A DNA stretch of 64,000 nucleotides from Candidatus Magasanikbacteria bacterium RIFCSPHIGHO2_01_FULL_33_34 (GTDB taxonomy: Bacteria; Patescibacteriota; Patescibacteriia; Magasanikbacterales; UBA922), in NCBI GenBank assembly GCA_001782825.1, contig MFPS01000008.1, positions 9,012 to 73,011 on the forward strand, written 5' to 3'. This document shows positions 3,374 to 49,287 of this stretch, in pieces. The stretch's first letter is position 1; the number at the start of each line of letters is the position of its first letter. Below the pieces are notes generated by a model. That model was not told the DNA's origin. It did no database searches and saw only the letters and a program-made list of their open reading frames with translations. A program made the translations under genes and the position numbers.

Positions 3374-5395
3374 ATGAATGTAACTGAATTGGCTAGACAG
3401 CTTAGAATAAATACAAAACAAATGTTGGAAATATTACCTGCACATGGTTTTGATATTGGTGCAAAAGCGGTAAAAATTGATGATAGGGTTGCCAATCAGA
3501 TAATGCGTCAATGGAAATACATTAAAAAAGCTATTGAGGATAAAGAAAAAAAAGCCAAGGCAGAACAATTGTTGAAAGAAAAGGAAATGCGTAAACAAGT
3601 TGGCGAGTCTGTTGCTTTGCCTAGTTTGATTACTGTTCGTGATTTTGCCAGTAGATTAAATTTACCAGTAACACAATTGATTACTGAACTTATGAAAAAT
3701 GGCATTTTAGCCAATCAAAATCAAAATATTGATTATGATACCGCGGCTATTATGGCAGAGGAACTTGGTTTTACAGTTTTGAAAGAAACTGGGGATAGAA
3801 TGGTAGAAGACGACAATAGTCATGTATTGGAAAATGCATTACAAAAAGGTGAAAATAAAACTAGAAGAGCTCCGGTAGTTGTAGTTATGGGACACGTCGA
3901 TCATGGTAAAACTAAGTTATTGGATAGTATAAGACAAACAAATATAGTTGATACTGAATCAGGTGGAATTACTCAACATATAGGCGCATATCAAACTATT
4001 TGGAAAGATCCAAAAACAAAAGAAGAAAGACCAATGACTTTTATTGATACTCCTGGTCATGAAGCTTTTACAGTGATGAGATCTCGTGGGGCTAAAATTG
4101 CTGATTTGGCTATTTTGGTAGTGGCAGCCGATGATAGTGTAAAACCACAAACAGAAGAAGTTATTCAGATTATAAAAGCGGCTAAGCTTCCGTTTGTAGT
4201 GGCTATAAACAAAATTGACAAAGAAACAGCCGATATCCAACGAGTAAAAACAGAGCTTTCACAACGTGATGTCTTGGCAGAAGAATGGGGTGGATCAGTC
4301 CCAATGGTAGAGATTTCTGCCAAAGAAAAATTAAATATTGATAAATTACTTGATGTATTACTTTTGGTTTCTGATATGAATGCCGATAGTATGCAAGCAG
4401 ATACGAGTATTCCAGCTGTTGGTACTGTGATTGAGTCGCATGTTGACAAAGGTACTGGGCCGGTAACCACTATATTGGTTCAAGCAGGTACCCTTAAAAA
4501 AGGTGATCCACTGGTATTGAATGGTGAAATATATGGCAAAGTTAGAGCCATGCATGATTATAAAGGTGAAGAAATTTTAGAAGCAGGACCAAGTGTGCCA
4601 GTGCAAATCATTGGATTTAAAGTGGCCCCTGAAGTTGGTGATATAATGGATGTTGGTCTTGCAAAAGGTGCTCAAAAAATTGATGCAAAACAAAAATATT
4701 CACAACAAACCGGTGCAGAAAATAGGTCTGCCTTTCAATCAAATGAAAGTGAAGAAGATGGAAAAAATAAAAAATATTTAAATATTGTTATAAAAGCCGA
4801 TGTATTGGGTTCACTTGAAGCTATTATTGGTGCTCTTGAGAATATTCAGCATGAAGAAGTGCGGGTAAAGATTATTGGTAAAGGCCTTGGAAATATAAAT
4901 GAAAATGATATTGCCAAAGTTGAAAGTTCTGGTGGCGCGATTCTGGCTTTTAAGGTTGGGGCAACACCAATGGCAGGGGAGAGTATTCGTGACAAGAAAA
5001 TACAATTTTTAAAGTTTGACATAATTTATGATTTGATTGATTGGGCAAAAGACGAGTTAGAAAAAATGTTGGAAAAAGAATTGGTGACAACAGAAATTGG
5101 CAATTTAAAAGTATTAGCAATTTTTAGAACTGATAAAGGCGCTATGACATTGGGTGGTAGAGTGGAGATAGGTAAAGTTATAAAAGATGCTTTGGTCAGA
5201 ATAAAAAGAGAAAAAGAAATTGTTGGTATAGGCAAGGTATCAAAATTACAAACTGGACAATCAGAAACAAAACAAGTGCCACAGGGATCAGAATGTGGTC
5301 TGCGTATTGAAAGTAAAACAAAAATAGAAGCGGGTGATATTTTAGAATTTTATACAGAAGAACTTGTGGTTAGAAAAATGAATTTAAAAAAATAA
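3374..5395 (+). CDS. infB: translation initiation factor IF-2
   Basis: G-domain motifs GHVDHGKT, DTPGHEAF, NKID; IF-2 N-terminal segment and C-terminal beta-barrel domains; 673 aa. Confidence 0.95.
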   Translation: MNVTELARQLRINTKQMLEILPAHGFDIGAKAVKIDDRVANQIMRQWKYIKKAIEDKEKKAKAEQLLKEKEMRKQVGESVALPSLITVRDFASRLNLPVTQLITELMKNGILANQNQNIDYDTAAIMAEELGFTVLKETGDRMVEDDNSHVLENALQKGENKTRRAPVVVVMGHVDHGKTKLLDSIRQTNIVDTESGGITQHIGAYQTIWKDPKTKEERPMTFIDTPGHEAFTVMRSRGAKIADLAILVVAADDSVKPQTEEVIQIIKAAKLPFVVAINKIDKETADIQRVKTELSQRDVLAEEWGGSVPMVEISAKEKLNIDKLLDVLLLVSDMNADSMQADTSIPAVGTVIESHVDKGTGPVTTILVQAGTLKKGDPLVLNGEIYGKVRAMHDYKGEEILEAGPSVPVQIIGFKVAPEVGDIMDVGLAKGAQKIDAKQKYSQQTGAENRSAFQSNESEEDGKNKKYLNIVIKADVLGSLEAIIGALENIQHEEVRVKIIGKGLGNINENDIAKVESSGGAILAFKVGATPMAGESIRDKKIQFLKFDIIYDLIDWAKDELEKMLEKELVTTEIGNLKVLAIFRTDKGAMTLGGRVEIGKVIKDALVRIKREKEIVGIGKVSKLQTGQSETKQVPQGSECGLRIESKTKIEAGDILEFYTEELVVRKMNLKK

Positions 5396-7840: not shown

Positions 7841-8602
7841 ATGCAAGATTTTTTGAAAGAGACAATCAGAGAAGCCGGGGGTATTGCCAAGGAATATTTT
7901 TATCAAGGAGTTGTTCATAGGATGAAAACTTCTTTGGGTGATTTGGTTACAGACGCTGATATTGCAGTCAGTAATTTTTTGATAGAAAAAATACATGAAA
8001 AGTATCCAGATCATCAAATTCATACAGAAGAAGAGGGCGATGATATAAATCCTGGAGCTCAATATGAGTGGGTACTTGATCCGATTGATGGTACGCGTAA
8101 TTTTGCCATGGGAATATCTTTTTGGTGTATTATGGTAGCCGTACTCAAAGATGGCGAATTGTATATGTCAGCTATATATAACCCTTTGGCAGATGAATTG
8201 TTTTTTGCTGAAGCAAATAAAGGGGCATTTATGAATGATAAAAAAATAAAAGTAAATGATGTTGATGTTTTGGATCATGGTAATGGTGTATTGATGCGTG
8301 GTATCAATACTGATCGTGAAGAAGAATATAAAAATATGTTAGCAAAAGTGTCGGTTGGTAGTAATATGTGGATGCTTAATTTTGGCACGATGTTGAGTTT
8401 GTGTCATTTGGCAATGGGTGGTATGGAATATTTTGCAGTTAATGTTGGTTTTGATCATGATTATTTGCCGGGAGTGTTAATTGCCAAAGAGGCTGGAGCA
8501 GTCGTGACTGATAGTCAGGGTGAACCATGGACTCGATATAAGCGTGATATAGTAGTATCAAATTCAAATTTACATTCAAAACTTTTAGAACTATTCAAAT
8601 AA
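7841..8602 (+). CDS. suhB: inositol monophosphatase family protein (SuhB-like)
   Basis: Motifs WVLDPIDGTRNF and metal-binding EEEGD; ATG at 7841 preferred over upstream in-frame ATG at 7802 (AGGG 9 nt upstream). Confidence 0.8.
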   Translation: MQDFLKETIREAGGIAKEYFYQGVVHRMKTSLGDLVTDADIAVSNFLIEKIHEKYPDHQIHTEEEGDDINPGAQYEWVLDPIDGTRNFAMGISFWCIMVAVLKDGELYMSAIYNPLADELFFAEANKGAFMNDKKIKVNDVDVLDHGNGVLMRGINTDREEEYKNMLAKVSVGSNMWMLNFGTMLSLCHLAMGGMEYFAVNVGFDHDYLPGVLIAKEAGAVVTDSQGEPWTRYKRDIVVSNSNLHSKLLELFK

Positions 8603-8603
8603 T

Positions 8604-11600
8604 ATGCAGGAATATAATCCAAATAAAATAGAATCAAAATGGCAAAAAGAATGGGAAAAAAACGGCCTTTATAAAACGCCAGAAGATGTTATTATAGAAA
8701 ATAAAATGTATATATTGCCACAATTGCCATATCCATCAGGATCTGGTTTGCATGTGGGTCATGCAGAAGTATATTCGGCATGTGATATATATGCGCGATA
8801 TCAGAGAATGCAAAAAAAGAAAGTTTTGCAAGTAATAGGCTGGGATAGTTTTGGATTGCCAGCAGAAAATTATGCAATAAAAAATAATGTGCACCCAAAA
8901 ATAAGTACAGACAAAGCCATTGATAATTTTAGGAGTCAAATTAAGTCATTGGGTATTTCTGTAGATTGGGATCGTGAAGTTGGGGCGCATAATCCTGATT
9001 ATTACAAATGGACACAGTGGTTTTTTTTGCTTATGTATAGACGTGGTCTTGCTTATCGTAAAAAACAAAGTGTCAATTGGTGCGATAGTTGTAAGACTGT
9101 GTTAGCAAATGAACAAGTGGTTGAAGGTCATTGTGAGCGTTGTGATACAGAAGTAGTCCAAAGAAAAATGGATCAATGGTTTTTGAAAATTACTGATTAT
9201 GCAGATCGGTTAGCAAAAGATTTGGATAAAGTAGATTGGCCAGCAGAAACAAAACGAAGACAAAGGCAATGGATAGGTCGGAGTGATGGGGCTGAGGTTG
9301 ATTTTAAAATCAAAGATTTTGATTATAAGATTTCAGTATTTACTACTCGTCCAGATACGCTTTTTGGGGCGACATATTTGGTATTGGCTCCAGAAGGTTT
9401 GATCGTGCAAGAATTAAGAGGGCAAGTAGAAAATTGGTTAGAGGTTGAAAAATATATTGATGAAACAAAAAAGAAAACAGAACTTAATCGTCAAACACAA
9501 AAAGAAAAAACTGGGGTAGAATTGAAGGGTATTAAAGCGATTAATCCGGTTAATGGAAAAGAGATGCCTATTTGGATTGCTGATTATGTTTTATCAACTT
9601 ATGGTACAGGGTCTATTATGGCAGTGCCGGCGCATGATGAGAGAGATTGGGAGTTTGCTAAGAAGTTTGGTTTGGAAATAAAAGTTGTCGTAATTCCGGT
9701 GATAGATAGTAGACCAGATGAATTGTTGAATGAAAAAATAAATTTTTATACAAATGAAACGTTACAACACGGCAGTTATTCTAAAGAAGGCTTATCAGTA
9801 AATTCCAATTTTTTAGATGGTTTAAAAAGTGAAGAAGCCAAAGAAAAAATGATAGCTTGGCTTGAAGAATATAATGTTGGCAAAAGAAAAGTCCAATTTA
9901 AACTTCGGGATTGGTCAGTGTCTCGCCAAAGGTTTTGGGGAGCTCCAATTCCAATGGTATTTAATGAAACAAGAAAAAACAAAAAATATGAATATATTTT
10001 TATTCATGGGTATGGTGGGGACAGTGAGTCAAATTATTTTCCAAAATTAAAAAAAGATTTAGAAGCAATTGGCCATACAGTGATTGCTTTTGATTTGCCA
10101 AATACGGAAAAGCCAAATATTTGTGAACAAATGCAGTTTTTGCTTGAAAATATTAGTATAAGTGAAAATACTGTTATTTTGGCACATAGTCTTGGTGGGG
10201 CTGTAGCCATGAAGATGTTAGAACATGAAAACAAAAAAGTTGCTAAAGTGATTTTTTCTGATTGTTTTTTTGAGCCAAAGTTTGCCGATGTTGCACGACC
10301 AGTTGTTGAGAGTAGCTGTGATTGGAATTTTGATTTTGAAAAATTAAAGACATTGTCAGAGGAGTTTGTAGTTGTTTTTGATTCTAATTGTCCGGTAATT
10401 CCTCGTGAACATAGTGAAAAGTTTGCCAAAAATTTGGATGCAAGAATAGTATTTGCGCGGGCTAATGGACCTCATTTTATGAGTATTCACGAACCAATAA
10501 TTTTAGAAGAGTCATTGGTCAATGGTTTAAAACCAGTTAAATTTGATGATTTGCCGGTGAAATTGCCTGATGATGTAGATTTCAAACCTACTGGACAATC
10601 TCCTTTGACATATTCAAAAGATTTTCAAAAAGGTATTGAAGATAAATATGGTTTGGGTTGGGAGAGAGAAGTGGATACACTGGATACGTTTATGTGTTCT
10701 AGTTGGTTTTATTATCGTTATCTTGATCCAAAAAATGATGATGAGTTCGCCTCAAGTATTGCCTTAAAAAAATGGATGCCAGTAGATTTTTATCTGGGTG
10801 GTGAGGAACATGTTAATGGACACTTATTGTATTCAAGGTTTTTCACCAAAGTTTTATTTGATGCTGGATATATTGATTTTGATGAACCATTTATGATGCA
10901 TAGGCATCAAGGTATGATTTTAGGTGAAGATAGCAAAAAAATGAGCAAACGTTGGTCAAATGTTATAAATCCATCTGATGTTGTAGATGAATTTGGAGCA
11001 GATACTTTTAGAGTATATGAGATGTTTATGGGTCCACTCGAACAAACTAAACCATGGAATACTGATGGTGTTCGTGGGGCGCGTAGATTTCTAGATAGAG
11101 TGTGGAATTTATACAAAAAAGTAAATTCTACAGAAAATTTAGAAGTTGAATACGATTCAATTCTTCACAAGACTATAAAAAAAGTTGGTGATGATTTGGC
11201 TACTTTTAGATTCAATACGGCCATTGCAAAGATGATGGAATTGACAAATGAATTTGTAAAAAGTGATAAAATTAGGCATACAGATTTTGAATTATTTTTA
11301 AAGATATTATCTCCATTTGCTCCACATATGACAGAAGAATTGTGGTCTGATATGGGTAATAAAAAATCAATATCATTAGAAGTTTGGCCTCAATATGATG
11401 AGAATAAAGTTATGGATAGCAAAATTATAGTGGTGGCGCAAGTAAATGGTAAAGTACGGGCAAGTTTTGAAGTGGATGTTGATATTTCAGAGAGTGATAT
11501 TAAAAAGATAGTGTTAGAAGATGCTGTTGTCAAAAAATGGTTAGCTGGCAAAGAGCCAAAGAAAGTAATTTATGTTAAGGGAAAGTTAGTATCAGTTGTA

Positions 11601-21988: not shown

Positions 21989-22127
21989 ATTTACAATGTT
22001 TTATTTTTTTGTTATACTAATAAATATCTGTTATTTATATGTAAGATATAATAGTATTGTTTATACTTTAAACTAATACTTAATTATAAATAATGCTTTT
22101 AATTCTTACAACTTATATAATATACAT

Positions 22128-22292
22128 ATGAATTTAAACTGTCCAGAATGTAAAAATGATGTAGATTTGTCCGTGTTTCCAAATTTAGAAAAGGATCAGG
22201 TTATTGAGTGTAATACTTGTGGTATTTCTTTGCTTGTGACAGAAATTAATGGTGATGCTGTGACTGCAGAAGTTACTGACGAAGGCAAGTAA
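22128..22292 (+). CDS. small zinc-ribbon protein, LysW-like architecture (not in ORF track because <60 aa)
   Basis: 54 aa MNLNCPECKNDVDLSVFPNLEKDQVIECNTCGISLLVTEINGDAVTAEVTDEGK: two CxxC pairs spaced as in amino-group carrier LysW; 3' end overlaps convergent mpl stop by ~20 nt. Confidence 0.3.
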   Translation: MNLNCPECKNDVDLSVFPNLEKDQVIECNTCGISLLVTEINGDAVTAEVTDEGK

Positions 22293-25502: not shown

Positions 25503-25530
25503 GCTTTTGTATTTTTTATTTTGTATTAGC

Positions 25531-25712
25531 TATAATAGCTAGGGTTACATCTTAAACTATCATTGCACAGGTTTCAATTATTTATTTTTACTCCCTGCCT
25601 GCCGGCAGGCAGGATTCTCGCTTTGGCTCCGAGGGTGATGCCTGTTGTGGCATCAAATCCGTAAAAACAAATAATTGAAACCAATGTTTAATTATAAATA
25701 TCGCTTTTAATT
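25531..25712. repeat. structured palindromic intergenic repeat, copy a
   Basis: 17-nt inverted repeat CAATTATTTATTTTTAC...GTAAAAACAAATAATTG enclosing perfect 20-bp palindrome CCTGCCTGCCGGCAGGCAGG and hairpin GATGCCtgttgtGGCATC; near-identical copies at ~38395-38575 and ~49075-49262. Confidence 0.8.
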
Positions 25713-27779
25713 TTTTTCATCTAATGCATTTAATCTGCGTATTTCAAGTGTTTTTGCTTGTGTTGCGCGTATATAAGTTTCGTTTTCTTGATTTGTTTTG
25801 CATTGTTCTGTCCAGAGTTGGTCTAATAATCCCGCATTTTCATTGATTATTTCAATTTCTCCTTCACGAACACCATGATTGTATTTGCCATCTTTATTCC
25901 AGGCAAATGAGTGGACATATGAGATTTTTTTGATAGATAAGTTGTTGGTTGAATCAGGTGTATTGTATTCACAATTGGTTTTGGTGATTACAATGATATG
26001 ATCACGGTCTTGTTTTATGCCAGCATTTATCATTACTATAAAATCACCAGGTTTAATATTTTTTTTGAGTATAGAGTGACTATTTTCATCTTGTGCAAAA
26101 GTTAAAACATTTACATTTTGTACAATTCTTAATTTGGCTATTAATTTTCTAAAAATATTTTTTATTGTAGGGAATTTGATTACAGATTGTAAGGATTTAT
26201 TAGTCTTTGCTTTTAATTCCGCATTCAATATATAGTAGGCAAGACCAGAGCAATCAATACCTATATTATTGTCTACTAACAATTGTTTGGTTTGTTCCTG
26301 ATTGAATTTGTCTAAGTTTATTTTATTTTTTTGGGCGATGATAGAGATTTCTTCTATAATTTCTTTTGGATTACCTTTGCCAGTAAAAACTTTCAAGCCA
26401 CCGCGTATTTTTTGACGCGCATTATTAAAATAAGGTACAGAAATAAAATTATTTTTGATTGGTAAGTTCAAATAAGCATCAATTACTTTTTGGGCTTCAT
26501 TACTTAAAAAAGCAATATTTGGACAAATTATGTGTAGAATTTTTTTGCCAATATCACTTAGTCTATTGTGATCTGTCATGACTGATTGGTTGCTTTGTAT
26601 TCTCAATAGTTCTGTACCAATATTTTTATTATTGTAACCAATAACATCTAGATTATTTTTCTTTAAATCATTTATTATTTTTGTAATCTGTGGTGACCAA
26701 TCATTGTTGTGAATAATTCGTTTTATAATTTGTGAACCATTGGATATTGGTATTAATTTTTCTGTTGATGTATCTATATTGAGTAATCCTGCTAGATGAG
26801 CTTCAAAAATATTTATGCCATCATACTTAACTTTATTTTGTAGGATTGATTCAAAAGTAGTTGAAGCTGGCTGGCGAGCATTGACTTCTATCAAATACAT
26901 TTTTTTGGTTTTTTGGTCCATTATAATATCTACCCCAAATAGTCCTTTCCAGCCAAGCTCTTTTAATTTTTCAGATACTGATCTGACTATATTTTTAAAA
27001 TTTTCAATATCTACTTGAGTAAGTAATTTGTTTACTAATCCCCAGTCATTACCAATAGTTGAAAATGGCTTGTCAGTAAAATATTTAATACCAGTTATTT
27101 GATAACTAATGTTCCCGATTATTAAATCATTACCACTTAATGCATTATTATTTGTAAATATTGGACCTTCTACAAAATCTGAAATTCTAGCTTCTCTTTC
27201 TGGAAATTGTTTTTTAATTGTATCTAATTTTTCTTGACTATCAATCAAAACAGTGCCACTGCCAGTATGTGAATAATTGAATTGTAAGATAAATTTTTCT
27301 TTATTCCATTTTATATCTTTGCATTTTTCTATTTTGTAATTTAAAAAAAATTCGTTCAATGATTTGAAAATTTCAACTTGTGAAATTTTTTCTTCAATTT
27401 TATTTGATATTTTAGATGGTGGATTTAGTAGATTCCATTTATTTTCTTCACATATTTTTTCAATTTGTGCTGTATTTTTAAAAACCAAGATTGATGGATT
27501 TGTAAATTTTTTAATAAATTCTTTTGTGTCAGTATGCTTTAAAAGTTCTGCGGTACTTAATATTTCTTTTTCTTTTATTAAAAGAATATTTTTTTTGTTG
27601 ACGCTTGATTGTTTGGCAAAATCATTATTGTTTGAGATAATAAAATAACCCTCTGTGTCAGGATCAATGCTCATAGCCCTTTCAATATCACGAGTTACAT
27701 AAATTATCGGGTTTGATTTGAGTTTGTCAGTTAGGCTTTTCATAAATGTGATTATACTGTAAAATGTATGTGATTGCAA
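25707..27779 (-). CDS. ATP-grasp ligase fused to C-terminal NlpC/P60 (CHAP-like) cysteine peptidase domain
   Basis: ATP-grasp core (SHTGSGTV..., GLFGVDIIMDQKTKKMYLIEVNARQ); C-terminal GIDCSGLAYYIL ... KPGDFIVM ... DHIIVI ... YVHSF matching NlpC/P60 Cys-His-His arrangement; 690 aa. Confidence 0.65.
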   Translation of the reverse strand: MQSHTFYSIITFMKSLTDKLKSNPIIYVTRDIERAMSIDPDTEGYFIISNNNDFAKQSSVNKKNILLIKEKEILSTAELLKHTDTKEFIKKFTNPSILVFKNTAQIEKICEENKWNLLNPPSKISNKIEEKISQVEIFKSLNEFFLNYKIEKCKDIKWNKEKFILQFNYSHTGSGTVLIDSQEKLDTIKKQFPEREARISDFVEGPIFTNNNALSGNDLIIGNISYQITGIKYFTDKPFSTIGNDWGLVNKLLTQVDIENFKNIVRSVSEKLKELGWKGLFGVDIIMDQKTKKMYLIEVNARQPASTTFESILQNKVKYDGINIFEAHLAGLLNIDTSTEKLIPISNGSQIIKRIIHNNDWSPQITKIINDLKKNNLDVIGYNNKNIGTELLRIQSNQSVMTDHNRLSDIGKKILHIICPNIAFLSNEAQKVIDAYLNLPIKNNFISVPYFNNARQKIRGGLKVFTGKGNPKEIIEEISIIAQKNKINLDKFNQEQTKQLLVDNNIGIDCSGLAYYILNAELKAKTNKSLQSVIKFPTIKNIFRKLIAKLRIVQNVNVLTFAQDENSHSILKKNIKPGDFIVMINAGIKQDRDHIIVITKTNCEYNTPDSTNNLSIKKISYVHSFAWNKDGKYNHGVREGEIEIINENAGLLDQLWTEQCKTNQENETYIRATQAKTLEIRRLNALDEKN

Positions 27780-38366: not shown

Positions 38367-38394
38367 ATGTATTTTGTTGGAAATTATATGTAAG

Positions 38395-38575
38395 CTATAA
38401 TAGCATTATTTATATTTTTATCTATGACCGCATTATTTTCAATTATTTGTTTTTACTCCCTGCCTGCCGGCAGGCAGGATTCTCGCTTTGGCTCTGAGGG
38501 TGATGCATGTTGGGGCATCAAATCCGTAAAAACAAATAATTGAAAAAATGCTTAATTATAGATAATGCTCTTAAT
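38395..38575. repeat. structured palindromic intergenic repeat, copy b
   Basis: Outer TIR AGCATTATTTATA / TATAGATAATGCT, inner 17-nt IR CAATTATTTGTTTTTAC / GTAAAAACAAATAATTG (perfect), 20-bp perfect palindrome, GATGCAtgttggGGCATC hairpin. Confidence 0.8.
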
Positions 38576-38584
38576 TTTTACAAA

Positions 38585-40951
38585 TTATATTATATTTTTA
38601 AGGAATTTTAAACCCATATATAGACCAAGTCCAATGGCTCCAGAACCGGTAACTGCTATGACTTTTTCTATTATATTACGAGAGATTGGATTGGCTTGAT
38701 TTATTATATCATCCTCCAAATATTTTAATTCAGATATTTCAGTGGTTTCTCCTATTGGTTCTATGGTTTCATTTGGTTTATTATTAACCAAGTTTAACAT
38801 AGTATTGGTATCAGTAACAAGTGTAATATTATTTTCTTTTGTTATTTCTTGTGTTGTCGAAGTTATTATCGTTTCTTTGGTTGTATTTTGAACAGTATCA
38901 ATTTTGGTTATTGGTAAATTTTTTTCAATATTTTCTTCAATTAATTCTACAAAAATAGTTGATGTGACAAGCACTTCGGTTGATGTAACAAAAAGAGATT
39001 CAGTTGTGGTGTTAAAGTCTGTACCAATTATATTGCTGTATGAGTTTGAACTACTACTATTGGTTATAGTTGTAGGTATCTGTTCATTTGCTGTAGCAGG
39101 CGTAAATAATGGCTGTATAGGCCAGCTATAACCTAGTAGGGCTGGAATTGCATGTTTTGTATTGAACCAATCAACACCATCTACCCAGTCAGATGTATAA
39201 TAGCCATTTTCTTGTAAATTATCAATATATACAGACCATGGATTTTTGTCACCGATTGTCCATTCTTCTTGACCTTCACCTAGAGAATTTAAGCCCATCA
39301 AAACCCAGCTAGTGGTCAAGGTATCAGAAGTCAGATAACCCCAGCCACCATCATTATTTTGTTCATTTTTTAAATATTGCTTGGCTTTTGTAAATACACT
39401 ATTATCAATTTGAATTCCTTTTTCTTTTGCATAGTTTAATATATTTATAACTGCGCCAGTTATGTCTGCTCCGGCATAACCATCCCATGTGAATGCTCCG
39501 TCTGTATTTTGATCTGCTAAAATATCATTTAGTATATCAGTAATAATGTTTTCATTGATATTATTTTCAGATGTAAGCAATGCAAACAAAGCAAATACAT
39601 CATCATTAATTCCAGGTAATCCAAAGTCAGTTTCAGAATAACATTCGGTTTTTAGCGTATTAATTAGATTTATCATTGATTGATTATTGGTAGAAATTCC
39701 AGACGTATATAATGACAAATAGTGTCTTGGGTATGAAGCACAAACATTTAAATCAGTGGCATCAGTATAATTATAGTTTTTAATGTAGTCAGACAAGGAA
39801 GTAGAACTGGCAATAATATTAGCTGGATTTTTTCCATTGGCTACTAATGCCATTACAGACCAATCAGAAATCCCAGCATCTATGATTTTTCCAGTTTTGT
39901 CTTGGTTTTTTATTAAGAATTCGGTTAATTTATTGGCTGTGTTTGTAATTTGATTAGGTGAAATTAAATTTGTATAAGGTGTATTATTATCTGAAGATCC
40001 ACTACTTGAAGATCCGTTTGATGAATTATTTTCAGTAGTAGTAGAAATGATCGGTAGATCAAGTACATTTATGGTTATAGCGTTACTCCATTTTGAAAAG
40101 TCTGCCGGGGATATTTTTGCATAGTATGTCCCAGTCGCCGAGAACATAAAATCAACTATGCCATTTGTATCAGATACAAGCGTTGTAGTAGTTAAGGTTG
40201 TATCCCACCATCCAGTTGGGTTGGGATTGGTAATTGATATATCTATTGTATCATTGGCATCAGTTGACCATTCACTACTAGTAGTAGAAAAGTTATATTT
40301 GAAAGTTTGGAAGGTTGTAGTGGTACCAATTGGAAAGGTAGAAGTGCTAGCGGTAATTGACCATGGGTTTCCAAAGTATACATAAACATTTTCACCTCCA
40401 AATAATTCATATTTGTCCATACCGATATTTGGATATTCACCGTCTACAGCATATTGCCAATTGTAACAAGCTTCAGTGCTTGAATTAACTTCAATACAAT
40501 TTATCAAAAAACTATTAAAAGATTCATAATATACTAAATTTGAAATATTGAATGAAGCATTGTTTTGATTTTCTGTAAGGAGTGTAGTCAAAACATTATG
40601 GTTTTGTGATGAAGTTGTAAATATTTCATTGGTATTTGAATCTGTATAATCAAATGTTGTACTTGATGATAATTCAACTTCGCCTTGAAATATAAAATTA
40701 TCTTGATATCGCAAATTAAAGTTAATTGAAATTGGTTCATAAATTTCTTCTGTGGTGGTTGGTGTTTCAATAATATCATCTGTAGAGGTTGAAACTTCTT
40801 GTTCGGTTGAGCTAGTAGTTTGTGGGGTACTTGTAGAAGTGTCGCTATCATCAATAGCCCCAAAAGCAGAATTAACTGGTATGGTTATTAGTATTGAGAT
40901 AAACAGTATATTTATAAACAGTATAGGTGTATTAAAGATTTGATTTTTCAT
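38585..40951 (-). CDS. large cell-surface protein with prenyltransferase/terpenoid-cyclase-like alpha/alpha-toroid repeats; signal peptide, Ser/Thr-rich linker, C-terminal TM anchor
   Basis: Repeats such as QNTDGAFTWDGYAGADITGAVINIL, NEQNNDGGWGYLTSDTLTTSWVLMGL, GKIIDAGISDWSVMALVANG resemble squalene-cyclase/prenyltransferase-type repeats; 788 aa. Confidence 0.6.
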   Translation of the reverse strand: MKNQIFNTPILFINILFISILITIPVNSAFGAIDDSDTSTSTPQTTSSTEQEVSTSTDDIIETPTTTEEIYEPISINFNLRYQDNFIFQGEVELSSSTTFDYTDSNTNEIFTTSSQNHNVLTTLLTENQNNASFNISNLVYYESFNSFLINCIEVNSSTEACYNWQYAVDGEYPNIGMDKYELFGGENVYVYFGNPWSITASTSTFPIGTTTTFQTFKYNFSTTSSEWSTDANDTIDISITNPNPTGWWDTTLTTTTLVSDTNGIVDFMFSATGTYYAKISPADFSKWSNAITINVLDLPIISTTTENNSSNGSSSSGSSDNNTPYTNLISPNQITNTANKLTEFLIKNQDKTGKIIDAGISDWSVMALVANGKNPANIIASSTSLSDYIKNYNYTDATDLNVCASYPRHYLSLYTSGISTNNQSMINLINTLKTECYSETDFGLPGINDDVFALFALLTSENNINENIITDILNDILADQNTDGAFTWDGYAGADITGAVINILNYAKEKGIQIDNSVFTKAKQYLKNEQNNDGGWGYLTSDTLTTSWVLMGLNSLGEGQEEWTIGDKNPWSVYIDNLQENGYYTSDWVDGVDWFNTKHAIPALLGYSWPIQPLFTPATANEQIPTTITNSSSSNSYSNIIGTDFNTTTESLFVTSTEVLVTSTIFVELIEENIEKNLPITKIDTVQNTTKETIITSTTQEITKENNITLVTDTNTMLNLVNNKPNETIEPIGETTEISELKYLEDDIINQANPISRNIIEKVIAVTGSGAIGLGLYMGLKFLKNII

Positions 40952-41536: not shown

Positions 41537-41685
41537 ACTTTCCGGCAGGAAAGATAAGTTGATCAAAAATCAAAGGTCCTGCTCGGGTTACGCATTTATT
41601 TGAAGATCGGACTCGTTCCCTAAAGGGACATTACCGTTGCGGCACAGTGAGGGGATTTACCCTACTTCCACAAATAAATGGTTTA
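41537..41685 (-). promoter_or_regulatory. candidate cobalamin (B12) riboswitch with terminator-type expression platform
   Basis: Minus-strand RNA: P1 CAUUUAUUUG...CAAAUAAAUG enclosing GGGUAAAUCCCCUCACUGUGCCGCAACGGUAA (cf. consensus GGUGAAAAUCC...CCGCCACUGUAA) and GAGUCCG (start of B12 box rAGYCMG); followed by CUUUCCUGCCGGAAAG hairpin + UUUUUUAAUUUU directly before the DUF4430 ATG. Confidence 0.5.
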
Positions 41686-41784
41686 GTTGTATTGTCAGAT
41701 TATCATTGAATAGTAGTAGTGTCAAGTATTGATTTTAAGCTAAAATTAGTGTATAGTTTTGCCATATGTGGATAACTGAGTGAG

Positions 41785-41878
41785 ATTAATAGAAATTATT
41801 ATTCGCTCATTCTCGCTTTGGCTCCGAGGTGGTTGCCTGTTGTGGCAACCAAATCCGCTCGTAATAATTTCTATTAAT
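41785..41878. repeat. variant copy (d) of the structured repeat core, with different 19-nt terminal inverted repeats
   Basis: ATTAATAGAAATTATTATTCG...CGTAATAATTTCTATTAAT flank core TTCTCGCTTTGGCTCCGAGGTGGTTGCCtgttgtGGCAACCAAATCCG; hairpin shows compensatory change (GTTGCC/GGCAAC versus GATGCC/GGCATC in copies a-c). Confidence 0.7.
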
Positions 41879-41895
41879 GGTATTTTTGAAAAAGT

Positions 41896-42858
41896 ATGTG
41901 GATTGATAAAATTTTAAATAAAAACAAAAAAATAATGGCTTTGTCGCCAATGGCGGATATGACTGATTCGCCATTTTGTCGTATAGTGCGTCAAATTGGC
42001 GGAGTGGATATTGTGTTTCGAGAAATGGTGAGTAGTGAGGCTTTGGTTAGAGGAAGTGAAAAGACATTGAAAATGGCTGAATTTCACAAAACAGAAAGAC
42101 CAATTGTTCAGCAGATTTTTGGGGCAGACCCATTGATAATGGCTAGATCTGCAGATATCGTAATGCAACATTCTAATCCCGAAGGGATTGATATAAATAT
42201 GGGTTGTCCAGTTTATAAAATAACTAGTAATTTTAATGGTTGTGCTTTGATGAAGGACCCGGAGTTGGCTAGTAAGATTATAAAAGAAATGAAATCTGCA
42301 ATTGGTGATACGCCTTTGTCAGTTAAGATAAGGTTAGGTTGGAGTAATCCGGATGATTTTAAGATATTTATTCCGGCTATTGAGCGAGCTGGAGTTGATT
42401 TGATTACTGTTCATGGTAGAACAAAAGAACAAGGATATTCTGGAGTAAGTGATTGGCAGAGGATTGCAGAGGCCAAAAAAATTGCGACTGTGCCATTATT
42501 AGCCAATGGAGATATTCATGAACCTAGTCAGGTAAGTGAGGCGCTTGAAATTACTGGAGCTGATGGAGTTTTGATAGCTCGGGGCGCGCTTGGGAATCCT
42601 TGGTTTTTTGATATGATAGGAAAAAATGGTGAGATGGTCTCTTTAGATGAAAGAAAACGAGTAGTGCTAGAACATCTAAAATTGCATATTGAACATTATG
42701 GAGAACGGGGGATTGTAACTTTTAGAAAACATTTGTCTTGGTATTTCAAAACCAATAAAATAGGCCAGAATTTACCAAATATAAAAGAATGGAGATCAAA
42801 AATAGTACAAGTTAAAACTTTGGAAGAGGTGGAATCTCTGTTGGGTGAATTAAATTAA
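41896..42858 (+). CDS. tRNA-dihydrouridine synthase
   Basis: LSPMADMTDSPFCRIV, catalytic NMGCP, TIM-barrel Dus pattern; 320 aa (alternative ATG at 41935). Confidence 0.9.
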   Translation: MWIDKILNKNKKIMALSPMADMTDSPFCRIVRQIGGVDIVFREMVSSEALVRGSEKTLKMAEFHKTERPIVQQIFGADPLIMARSADIVMQHSNPEGIDINMGCPVYKITSNFNGCALMKDPELASKIIKEMKSAIGDTPLSVKIRLGWSNPDDFKIFIPAIERAGVDLITVHGRTKEQGYSGVSDWQRIAEAKKIATVPLLANGDIHEPSQVSEALEITGADGVLIARGALGNPWFFDMIGKNGEMVSLDERKRVVLEHLKLHIEHYGERGIVTFRKHLSWYFKTNKIGQNLPNIKEWRSKIVQVKTLEEVESLLGELN

Positions 42859-49017: not shown

Positions 49018-49074
49018 AAATGAATGATTTTATATTTATATAAGTATATAAGTAATGTGAATTAATTTGTAAGT

Positions 49075-49262
49075 TATAATAGCATTATTTATACTTTCAA
49101 TCACGACCATATTATTTTCAATTATTTATTTTTACTCCCTGCCTGCCGGCAGGCAGGATTCTCGCTATGGCTCCGAGGGTGATGCATGTTGGGGCATCAA
49201 ATCCGTAAAAATAAATAATTGAAAATAATGCTTAATTATAAATAACGCTTTCAATTTTTACA
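49075..49262. repeat. structured palindromic intergenic repeat, copy c
   Basis: Outer TIR AGCATTATTTATA / TATAAATAACGCT, inner IR CAATTATTTATTTTTAC / GTAAAAATAAATAATTG (perfect, compensatory A/T versus G/C in copy b), 20-bp perfect palindrome; left flank on minus strand reads TTGAAA-16nt-TATAAC toward purN. Confidence 0.8.
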
Positions 49263-49287
49263 ATTAATTTATAGTATTCACATATGC

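Follow-up and report, generated by a model that had tools for sequence, protein, structure and literature searches.

Nested fold-back repeats of Candidatus Magasanikbacteria probably form a lineage-specific MITE family

Bacterial MITEs, i.e. non-autonomous DNA transposons, are small, non-coding elements with terminal inverted repeats (TIRs) and a target-site duplication (TSD) of fixed length, whose copies are dispersed in intergenic DNA, present in some relatives and absent from others, nested, and accompanied by shorter, internally deleted variants. All of these properties are shared by the family of repeats described here from the window (the whole stretch of 64 kb of Candidatus Magasanikbacteria DNA that was analysed). 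Still, it differs from the described elements in that no cognate IS was identified, the observed copy number is low, the core-only members have different ends, and an internal core surpasses the ends in conservation and displays covariation. Correia elements (CREE) of Neisseria are fold-back MITEs of about 100-160 bp, with long and short classes that differ by an internal segment; like the present repeats, they are intergenic, often co-transcribed, bear promoter-like hexamers in their ends and form a long hairpin in transcripts. Unlike them, they have a TA duplication, 26-bp TIRs of unrelated sequence, an IHF site and hundreds of copies. To our knowledge, they are restricted to Neisseria, and we rejected this assignment on the basis of the 9-bp duplications, the unrelated TIR and the Magasanikbacteria host. 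Another resemblance is to the ERIC/IRU elements of enterobacteria, imperfect palindromes of ~127 bp in transcribed intergenic regions with size variants arising by internal indels; however, their sequence and host are unrelated and ERIC lacks clear target duplications. CPR/Patescibacteria have small, streamlined genomes, and the literature that we searched contained no paper naming MITEs together with CPR/Patescibacteria. We conclude that the family is real and not artefactual, that a nested MITE explains it best, and that it is new to this little-studied lineage.

Repeat search and alignment revealed three full copies of about 193 bp in the window, as well as one short copy of 69 bp and one divergent copy consisting of the core only. 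The full copies, 83-91% identical across 192-196 bp, all lie on the plus strand and each is placed between two minus-strand genes: c49k (49069-49261, 193 bp) between purD and purN, c38k (38390-38581, 192 bp, 91% identical to c49k) between a 788-aa DUF4430 gene and a DUF6580 gene, and c25k (25523-25718, about 196 bp) between an ATP-grasp/NlpC gene and MraY. A sequence-only reading of the same DNA had reported nearly identical elements of ~180 bp in these three places, each between co-directional minus-strand genes; their similarity and gene context hold, while the boundaries had to be redrawn to those given above. We set the boundaries by TIR and TSD, taking GTAAG...(T/C)TTAC as the arm tips; GTAAG is found at both tips of c49k, c38k and c22k. 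The outer repeat, previously taken to be 13 bp long, actually measures about 28-30 bp (GTAAGNTATAATAGCATTATTTATA...), and the 13-bp pairing is a part of these longer arms. Left arms align in register with the reverse complements of right arms, and 20-23 of the 30 terminal positions are complementary in c49k (20/30, GTAAGTTATAATAGCATTATTTATA.../...TATAAATAACGCTTTCAATTTTTAC), c38k and c22k, as compared with 16/31 in c25k, an older copy with decayed arms. The short copy, c22k (22041-22109, plus strand, 69 bp), consists of both arms without the core and is flanked by a minus-strand PALP-enzyme gene and a plus-strand LysW-like ORF. Its arms, complementary at 23/30 positions, align to those of the full copies, so that a supposed right-end fragment at 22079-22109 turns out to be the right arm of a complete short copy. 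The LysW-like ORF (22128-22292) encodes a 54-aa zinc ribbon with a weak LysW Pfam match and is divergent from the PALP-family gene, with c22k exactly between the two. The variant copy, which had been counted without a location, is the core-only c41k (41774-41894, plus strand, 121 bp; core at 41785-41878), inserted among the first codons of dus; its closing stem is a different one, the GC palindrome is lacking and the hairpin is compensated.

The members, 69-196 bp long, harbor only spurious ORFs of 20-39 aa, and six-frame peptides of the element found no match in the protein collection searched. The copies fold much more stably than shuffled sequence (z-scores of -5.7 to -6.7), with a predicted -57 kcal/mol and z = -6.7 for c49k. 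A 19-nt pattern from the P3 part of the core occurs 4 times in the window against 0.01 expected. No additional copies were present in 17 kb of the same genome beyond the window ends, which gives five members over roughly 81 kb of the genome, all within 22-49 kb; so few members count against a MITE. A scan of species-representative genomes for the P3 motif, and of JGI metagenomes for a gapped P3-P4-junction motif, returned only chance or coding matches, and BLAST of the core or of the 20-bp palindrome against GenBank phages and PLSDB plasmids gave nothing meaningful. The core pattern was also matched once in a viral sequence (L113), within a 365-aa ORF, and we judged this match coincidental.

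Decisive evidence of mobility comes from the flanks. An identical 9-mer borders c49k on both sides (AATTAATTT, 49060-49068 and 49262-49270), and the same is true of c38k (AAATTATAT, 38381-38389 and 38582-38590) and c41k (TATGTGGAT, 41765-41773 and 41895-41903). The match is thus 9/9 in these three copies, and it is 8/9 in a homologue in a related genome (L120, see below) and 7/9 in c22k (TATTTATAT/AACTTATAT). A 9/9 match at fixed spacing has a frequency of 3e-5 across the window, or of 0.5% for 9-mers made of A/T only. Short, non-coding sequences with inverted ends, a target duplication of fixed length and presence or absence among relatives together make up the signature of a MITE, and the TSDs, a test that the sequence-only reading had itself named, and the element-free sites in related genomes support its suggestion of a MITE-like mobile element. 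On the other hand, several observations count against it: c25k has no recognisable duplication at its ends, no strain without the purD-purN insertion was found among the other assemblies, and c41k bears non-palindromic tails of 11 and 16 nt between its duplication and its closing stem. Weighing all of this, we consider it probable that the repeats are a lineage-specific family of non-autonomous DNA transposons of Candidatus Magasanikbacteria, made of nested fold-back modules.

Alignment with three related genomes (L118, L119, L120) shows c41k to be a 121-bp insertion relative to their dus start, with TATGTGGAT duplicated around it. As TATGTGGAT was duplicated by the insertion, the dus start codon was regenerated: the left copy belongs to a relic start codon, and the right one holds the live ATG at 41896. 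The relic start (ATGTGGATAACTGAGTGA, MWITE*, 41766-41783) is followed by a stop upstream of c41k. None of these three relatives has a core upstream of dus, and the copy being an insertion, we rejected the idea of the core being a conserved leader of dus, such as a tRNA mimic for dihydrouridine synthase. Nearby, at 41593-41680 on the minus strand, there is an AdoCbl (B12) riboswitch-like aptamer (43.6 bits against an Rfam gathering score of 50, E = 7.8e-7) upstream of a cluster of DUF4430, 788-aa DUF4430-like and DUF6580 genes, which is likely a cobalamin uptake operon. A promoter-like TTGACA-17-TAATCT site lies at about 41725-41697. The sequence is conserved in the relative L118 (about 9790-9910). 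We did not retain the possibility that c41k is a part of the leader of this operon, as the TTGACA-17-TAATCT match, found by eye, lies between c41k and the riboswitch.

At matching loci of other relatives, the element is missing as well. The spacer upstream of MraY measures 116-120 nt in 84-85% relatives (L121, L122) and lacks the element, as do the corresponding spacers of L074-77, and in a 91% relative this spacer is longer and has an unrelated insert, with no copy. A search of about 140 kb of related loci yielded no copies besides one core homologue, found at an unrelated locus in a related species (83% Dus identity; L120, 3499-3638). It is flanked by AAAATGGT(T/C), which is the 9-bp duplication matching at 8/9 positions. 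A covariance model (R1) built from four window copies scored 126 bits for c49k, 124.7 bits for the c38k core, 80 bits for c41k and 42 bits for the L120 homologue, for which a model R2 gave 61 bits. Directly downstream of the L120 element, at 3640-3760, a GC-rich and apparently structured stretch without an Rfam match precedes a TTGACA-17-TATAAT promoter. It may be added that in an 85% relative (L072, 13348-13716) a gene with bAvd and 23S rRNA IVP Pfam matches, absent from the window, adjoins the Mur ligase gene; by these matches, it is possibly an accessory gene of a diversity-generating retroelement.

The core itself is predicted to be a 105-nt three- or four-way junction. In c49k, MFE folds, a consensus structure and the covariance model place it on the plus strand at 49118-49222. 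Its AT-rich closing stem P1 (49118-49135/49205-49222) extends to about 49110/49230, the palindrome described below forms P2, and the two further stems are P3 (UCUCG/CGAGG, 49160-49164/49174-49178) and P4 (GAUGC/GCAUC with a UGUUG loop, 49180-49185/49194-49199), followed by the joining strand AAUCC (49200-49204). The corresponding cores, also on the plus strand, are at 38439-38543 in c38k and at 25574-25678 in c25k. The inner inverted repeat of 17-18 bp noticed earlier is real, one of its pairs being A:T in c49k, G:C in c38k and an intermediate A.C in c25k, and the GATGC...GCATC hairpin likewise reappears in the folds. Identity among the three full copies is 96% in the core and 69-85% elsewhere (Fisher p of 1e-2 to 3e-7); for c25k, the remainder is only 69-71% identical. 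All six variable columns of the core fall in loops, are compensated or give G.U pairs. When five sequences from three independent lineages were compared, 98.8% of cells were paired and 17 pairs had changed on both sides, including 12 of 18 pairs in P1 and 4 of 6 in P4, and no variation was seen in the stem of P3, in the UGUUG loop or in AAUCC across the core sequences. None of 500 shuffles reached the observed covariation, and no slid register came near it. Stems that covary and a slow divergence suggest that the core is constrained as a folded single strand, be it RNA or DNA, and a role at the level of RNA or of single-stranded DNA is possible on such sequence grounds. A core better conserved than the TIRs would be unusual for a purely selfish, decaying MITE and so counts against that reading. 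The strand signal is mixed, as several G.U pairs exist on the plus strand only and the A.C of c25k and L120 becomes G.U on the other strand. At the gathering level, Rfam gave no matches in the window and three related loci, and with E <= 10 the copies and related loci had only generic hairpin-type matches. A hammerhead-type junction, compared by hand, was rejected because neither strand lengths nor sequences fit.

Taken together, the copies are composed of three layers. The outer one is a ~193-bp unit with imperfect TIRs of ~28 bp starting with 5'-GTAAG, which integrates into AT-rich intergenic DNA and duplicates 9 bp; in its 69-bp version only the two arms are present. The middle layer is the 105-nt core with its closing AT-rich stem of 18-27 bp. 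It is an insertion unit in its own right, since the core-only copies c41k and L120 have their own 9-bp duplications, although their end sequences differ from the GTAAG arms, which again speaks against a simple MITE. The inner layer is a 20-bp GC palindrome (P, CCTGCCTGCCGGCAGGCAGG), added at the junction of the core in the lineage from which the three full copies derive. The junction reads TTTTTACTC|ATTCTCGC in L120 and TTTTTACTC[P]ATTCTCGC in the full copies; L120 thus equals the full-copy junction minus P, which makes P a base-precise extra layer. In L120, the P3 loop is enlarged by an insert of 41 nt that holds two other GC hairpins. A small GC hairpin of the form CCGAC-N3-8-GTCGG occurs in intergenic DNA of related Magasanikbacteria (L072 1181-1193, L074-L077, L119 2832-2844, L120 3546-3560), once inside the P3 loop of L120 and nowhere in the window.

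The presence of P, noticed already in the sequence-only reading, was verified at 25594-25613, 38459-38478 and 49138-49157; it is an optional arm, absent from c41k and L120. The exact 20-mer was also encountered at 42 sites in 35 stretches (L078-L112) of unrelated IMG/VR contigs with a GC content of 38-68%, one contig of 29.5 kb carrying six copies, and in these viral contigs it often has other local repeats around it or short direct repeats on either side. A control palindrome of the same composition and design had no matches, the inner 18-mer of P with other outer bases had one and a (CCTG)3 version had none. In one phage (L102, 2239-2330), P forms the long variable arm of a 92-nt tRNA-Met that is otherwise intact, and its placement is base-precise; a related phage (L079, about 8570-8650) has the same tRNA with P and a 13-nt deletion in the T-arm, so this tRNA is probably a pseudogene. 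P was likewise found in the MraY-upstream spacer of the 85% relative (L072, 9833-9852), within an unrelated hairpin. At the end of another viral contig (L111, 3918-4142) there are at least ten tandem 21-bp units, CCATGCCTACCGGCAGGCAGG, each a near-copy of P. The exact 20-mer was not found in 2.3 Gb of GenBank phages, among the best 25 of 51 PLSDB plasmid records or in the literature searched, and three well-defined insertion points of P have no flanking duplication. We tentatively propose that P could be an ultra-small mobile hairpin of invariant sequence that some still unrecognised enzyme would copy, with no duplication of the target, into loops or junctions of DNA or RNA genes that are already structured. 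In this speculative scenario, copies would have gone to the junction of this MITE core, to the variable arm of a phage tRNA-Met and into the middle of other repeats, in hosts as unrelated as an AT-rich CPR bacterium and phages whose contigs have 38-68% GC. Yeast mitochondrial GC clusters and Rickettsia palindromic elements are short GC-rich hairpins in AT-rich spacers and structured RNA genes. They offer an analogy for P only, and differ from it in that P has just 20 bp, is invariant across hosts of 38-68% GC and occurs in phage-like contigs.

IS66-family target duplications are 8-9 bp long. The inverted repeats of this family begin with GTAAGCG (GTAAGCGTCC...; PMC12888890), and in ISDge4, an element of the ISBst12 group, the ends are GTAAC/GTGAC and the direct repeat measures 8 bp (PMC12898284). 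Our elements share with these systems ends that begin with 5'-GTAAG and inverted repeats of about 20-30 bp, and their 9-bp target duplication is of similar size, one base longer than the 8 bp in both of these reports (PMC12888890, PMC12898284). However, the similarity of the tips ends after 5-6 bases, and no TnpA/TnpB/TnpC or ISBst12-type transposase was found in the sequences examined; we thus treat IS66/ISBst12 as a possible source of the ends, i.e. as a lead and not as a classification. No transposase of any kind was detected in the 64-kb window or among the genes called in some 200 kb of related loci, which leaves the mobilising enzyme hypothetical, and the TIR pattern had no matches in viral contigs. 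In the mechanism that we propose, a DDE transposase encoded elsewhere would bind the inverted ends, make staggered cuts 9 bp apart and paste the element; the GTAAG termini would fit an enzyme of the IS66/ISBst12 type. Once inserted, the element would add a very stable hairpin of ~190 nt to read-through transcripts of the operon, and inward sigma-70-like hexamers in the arms could start transcription toward the downstream gene. An integron attC origin was considered and rejected, as the ends do not fit RYYYAAC...GTTRRRY and the neighbours, about 10 kb apart, are genes of housekeeping operons in place of an array of promoterless cassettes beside intI.

As to these hexamers, the right arm read inward on the minus strand has TTGTAA-17-TATAAT, a 10/12 match to the sigma-70 consensus, and the left arm read inward on the plus strand has (T/A)TGTAA-17-TATA(C/T)T; outward, the left arm reads TGCTATTAT in two copies. 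They are not statistically distinctive: c49k has 4 promoter-like matches versus 4.3 expected in shuffles, and the other three regions have 4-7 versus 2.2-2.6. Conservation of the hexamers among copies follows from common descent, and promoter donation by the arms is possible, judging from their sequence. A left-flank promoter suggested earlier (TTGAAA-16-TATAAC) proved weak, as it is not conserved between copies and its final base is C. The genes around the copies in the window include MraY, MurB, Mur ligase, SecA, SecDF, the pur operon and dus; of these, MraY, MurB and SecA show the host to be a bacterium, and an archaeal TATA-box in the arms was therefore dismissed. Their closest named proteins belong to Candidatus Magasanikbacteria (Patescibacteria) of the Rifle aquifer data set, the host being an uncultured groundwater bacterium. 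At 25707-25720, the right arm of c25k overlaps the last codons and the stop of the upstream ATP-grasp/NlpC-P60 gene, whose product ends in ...LDEKN*, as compared with ...AFFD* in the L121 orthologue.

As an alternative to a mobile element, the 105-nt core might be a functional structured RNA, be it an sRNA gene, a cis leader or an antisense RNA, transcribed from the arm promoters, with mobility being incidental or the MITE its vehicle. On one hand, this would account for the three independent versions of P1 and P4 that keep their pairing by double changes around a constant P3 stem, UGUUG and AAUCC, for the 96% identity of the core against 69-85% outside it with all six variable columns being loop, compensated or G.U, and for G.U pairs present only on the plus strand; moreover, TTGTAA-17-TATAAT and TATACT hexamers face the core from both sides, and c41k, placed in the leader of dus, is followed by UAUUUUU. 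On the other hand, the core fits no Rfam family even with a threshold of E <= 10, it has no consistent orientation toward the adjacent genes (three copies are antisense to both neighbours, whereas c41k and L120 are sense), 81-85% relatives do not keep it at the corresponding loci, and a target duplication accompanies every well-preserved copy. Furthermore, promoter-like matches are about as frequent as in shuffles (4 versus 4.3 for c49k), no terminator was found in the regions scanned around the copies, and the A.C mismatch common to c25k and L120 favors the other strand. The covariation in P1 could also stem from co-evolving transposon ends or from selection of a DNA hairpin. We consider a functional core RNA conceivable but doubtful, and a new class of functional RNA riding on a transposon seems to us less likely than a mobile P.

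The remaining explanations fare worse. The repeats had also been suspected to be a conserved operator, duplicated together with its promoter; in this scenario the palindrome would bind a dimeric regulator, and purN, MraY, the DUF6580 gene and the PALP gene would belong to one regulon. The palindrome is indeed a perfect one of 20 bp, the arms are palindromic too, with hexamers 10/12 to the sigma-70 consensus, and the distance from the end of each arm-bearing copy to the minus-strand start codon downstream is 20-68 nt. We nevertheless find a regulatory cassette improbable, because the downstream genes are functionally unrelated, the same spacers of close relatives do without it, MraY has its own conserved promoter (TTGAAA-17-TATTAT) outside c25k, two family members lack the palindrome, the same palindrome appears in unrelated phage contexts, even inside a tRNA, and duplication of a promoter would not give target duplications. 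Even less probable is a REP/REPIN element moved by a RAYT (Y1 HUH) transposase, or a palindromic element derived from IS200/IS605, a REP-like element having been another of the original suggestions. Nested hairpins in intergenic DNA, the insertion of P without duplication and a CCGTAG preceding P in L072 and L098 would agree with it, but the 9-bp target duplications of the outer and core layers contradict it there, there is no conserved GTAG beside the palindromes in the window, copies are few, and no RAYT or TnpA gene was seen in the window. An artefact of assembly or sequencing, with collapsed or duplicated repeats or an adapter palindrome, might be suspected from the perfect palindrome of P, which is of an adapter-like kind, and from assemblies that break inside the element. 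Several other assemblies end contigs within it, and same-species contigs start inside it (L049 1-86, L050 1-78, L126 1-186). Such breaks are a typical effect of a dispersed repeat on assemblers. The copies differ from each other at 9-17% of positions and have different, unique flanks; the same copies, with P in the same place, recur at the same loci in at least five independent assemblies and samples, which excludes an assembly duplication, one of the outcomes by which the sequence-only reading was to be refuted, and P sits base-precisely in an otherwise intact tRNA, so we regard the probability of an artefact as practically negligible.

A nested MITE family has several implications. It shows that a streamlined genome tolerates fold-back transposons inside essential operons, namely in the pur genes, the vitamin B12 uptake cluster and the cell-wall genes, and even an insertion into the initial codons of a gene, whose start codon was restored by the target duplication. 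There are also two practical warnings, as the element breaks metagenomic contigs and as a mobile element can mimic a structured RNA, with strong covariation signals. Finally, the conservation of the core and the 20-bp palindrome shared across hosts are leads that could point to new biology.
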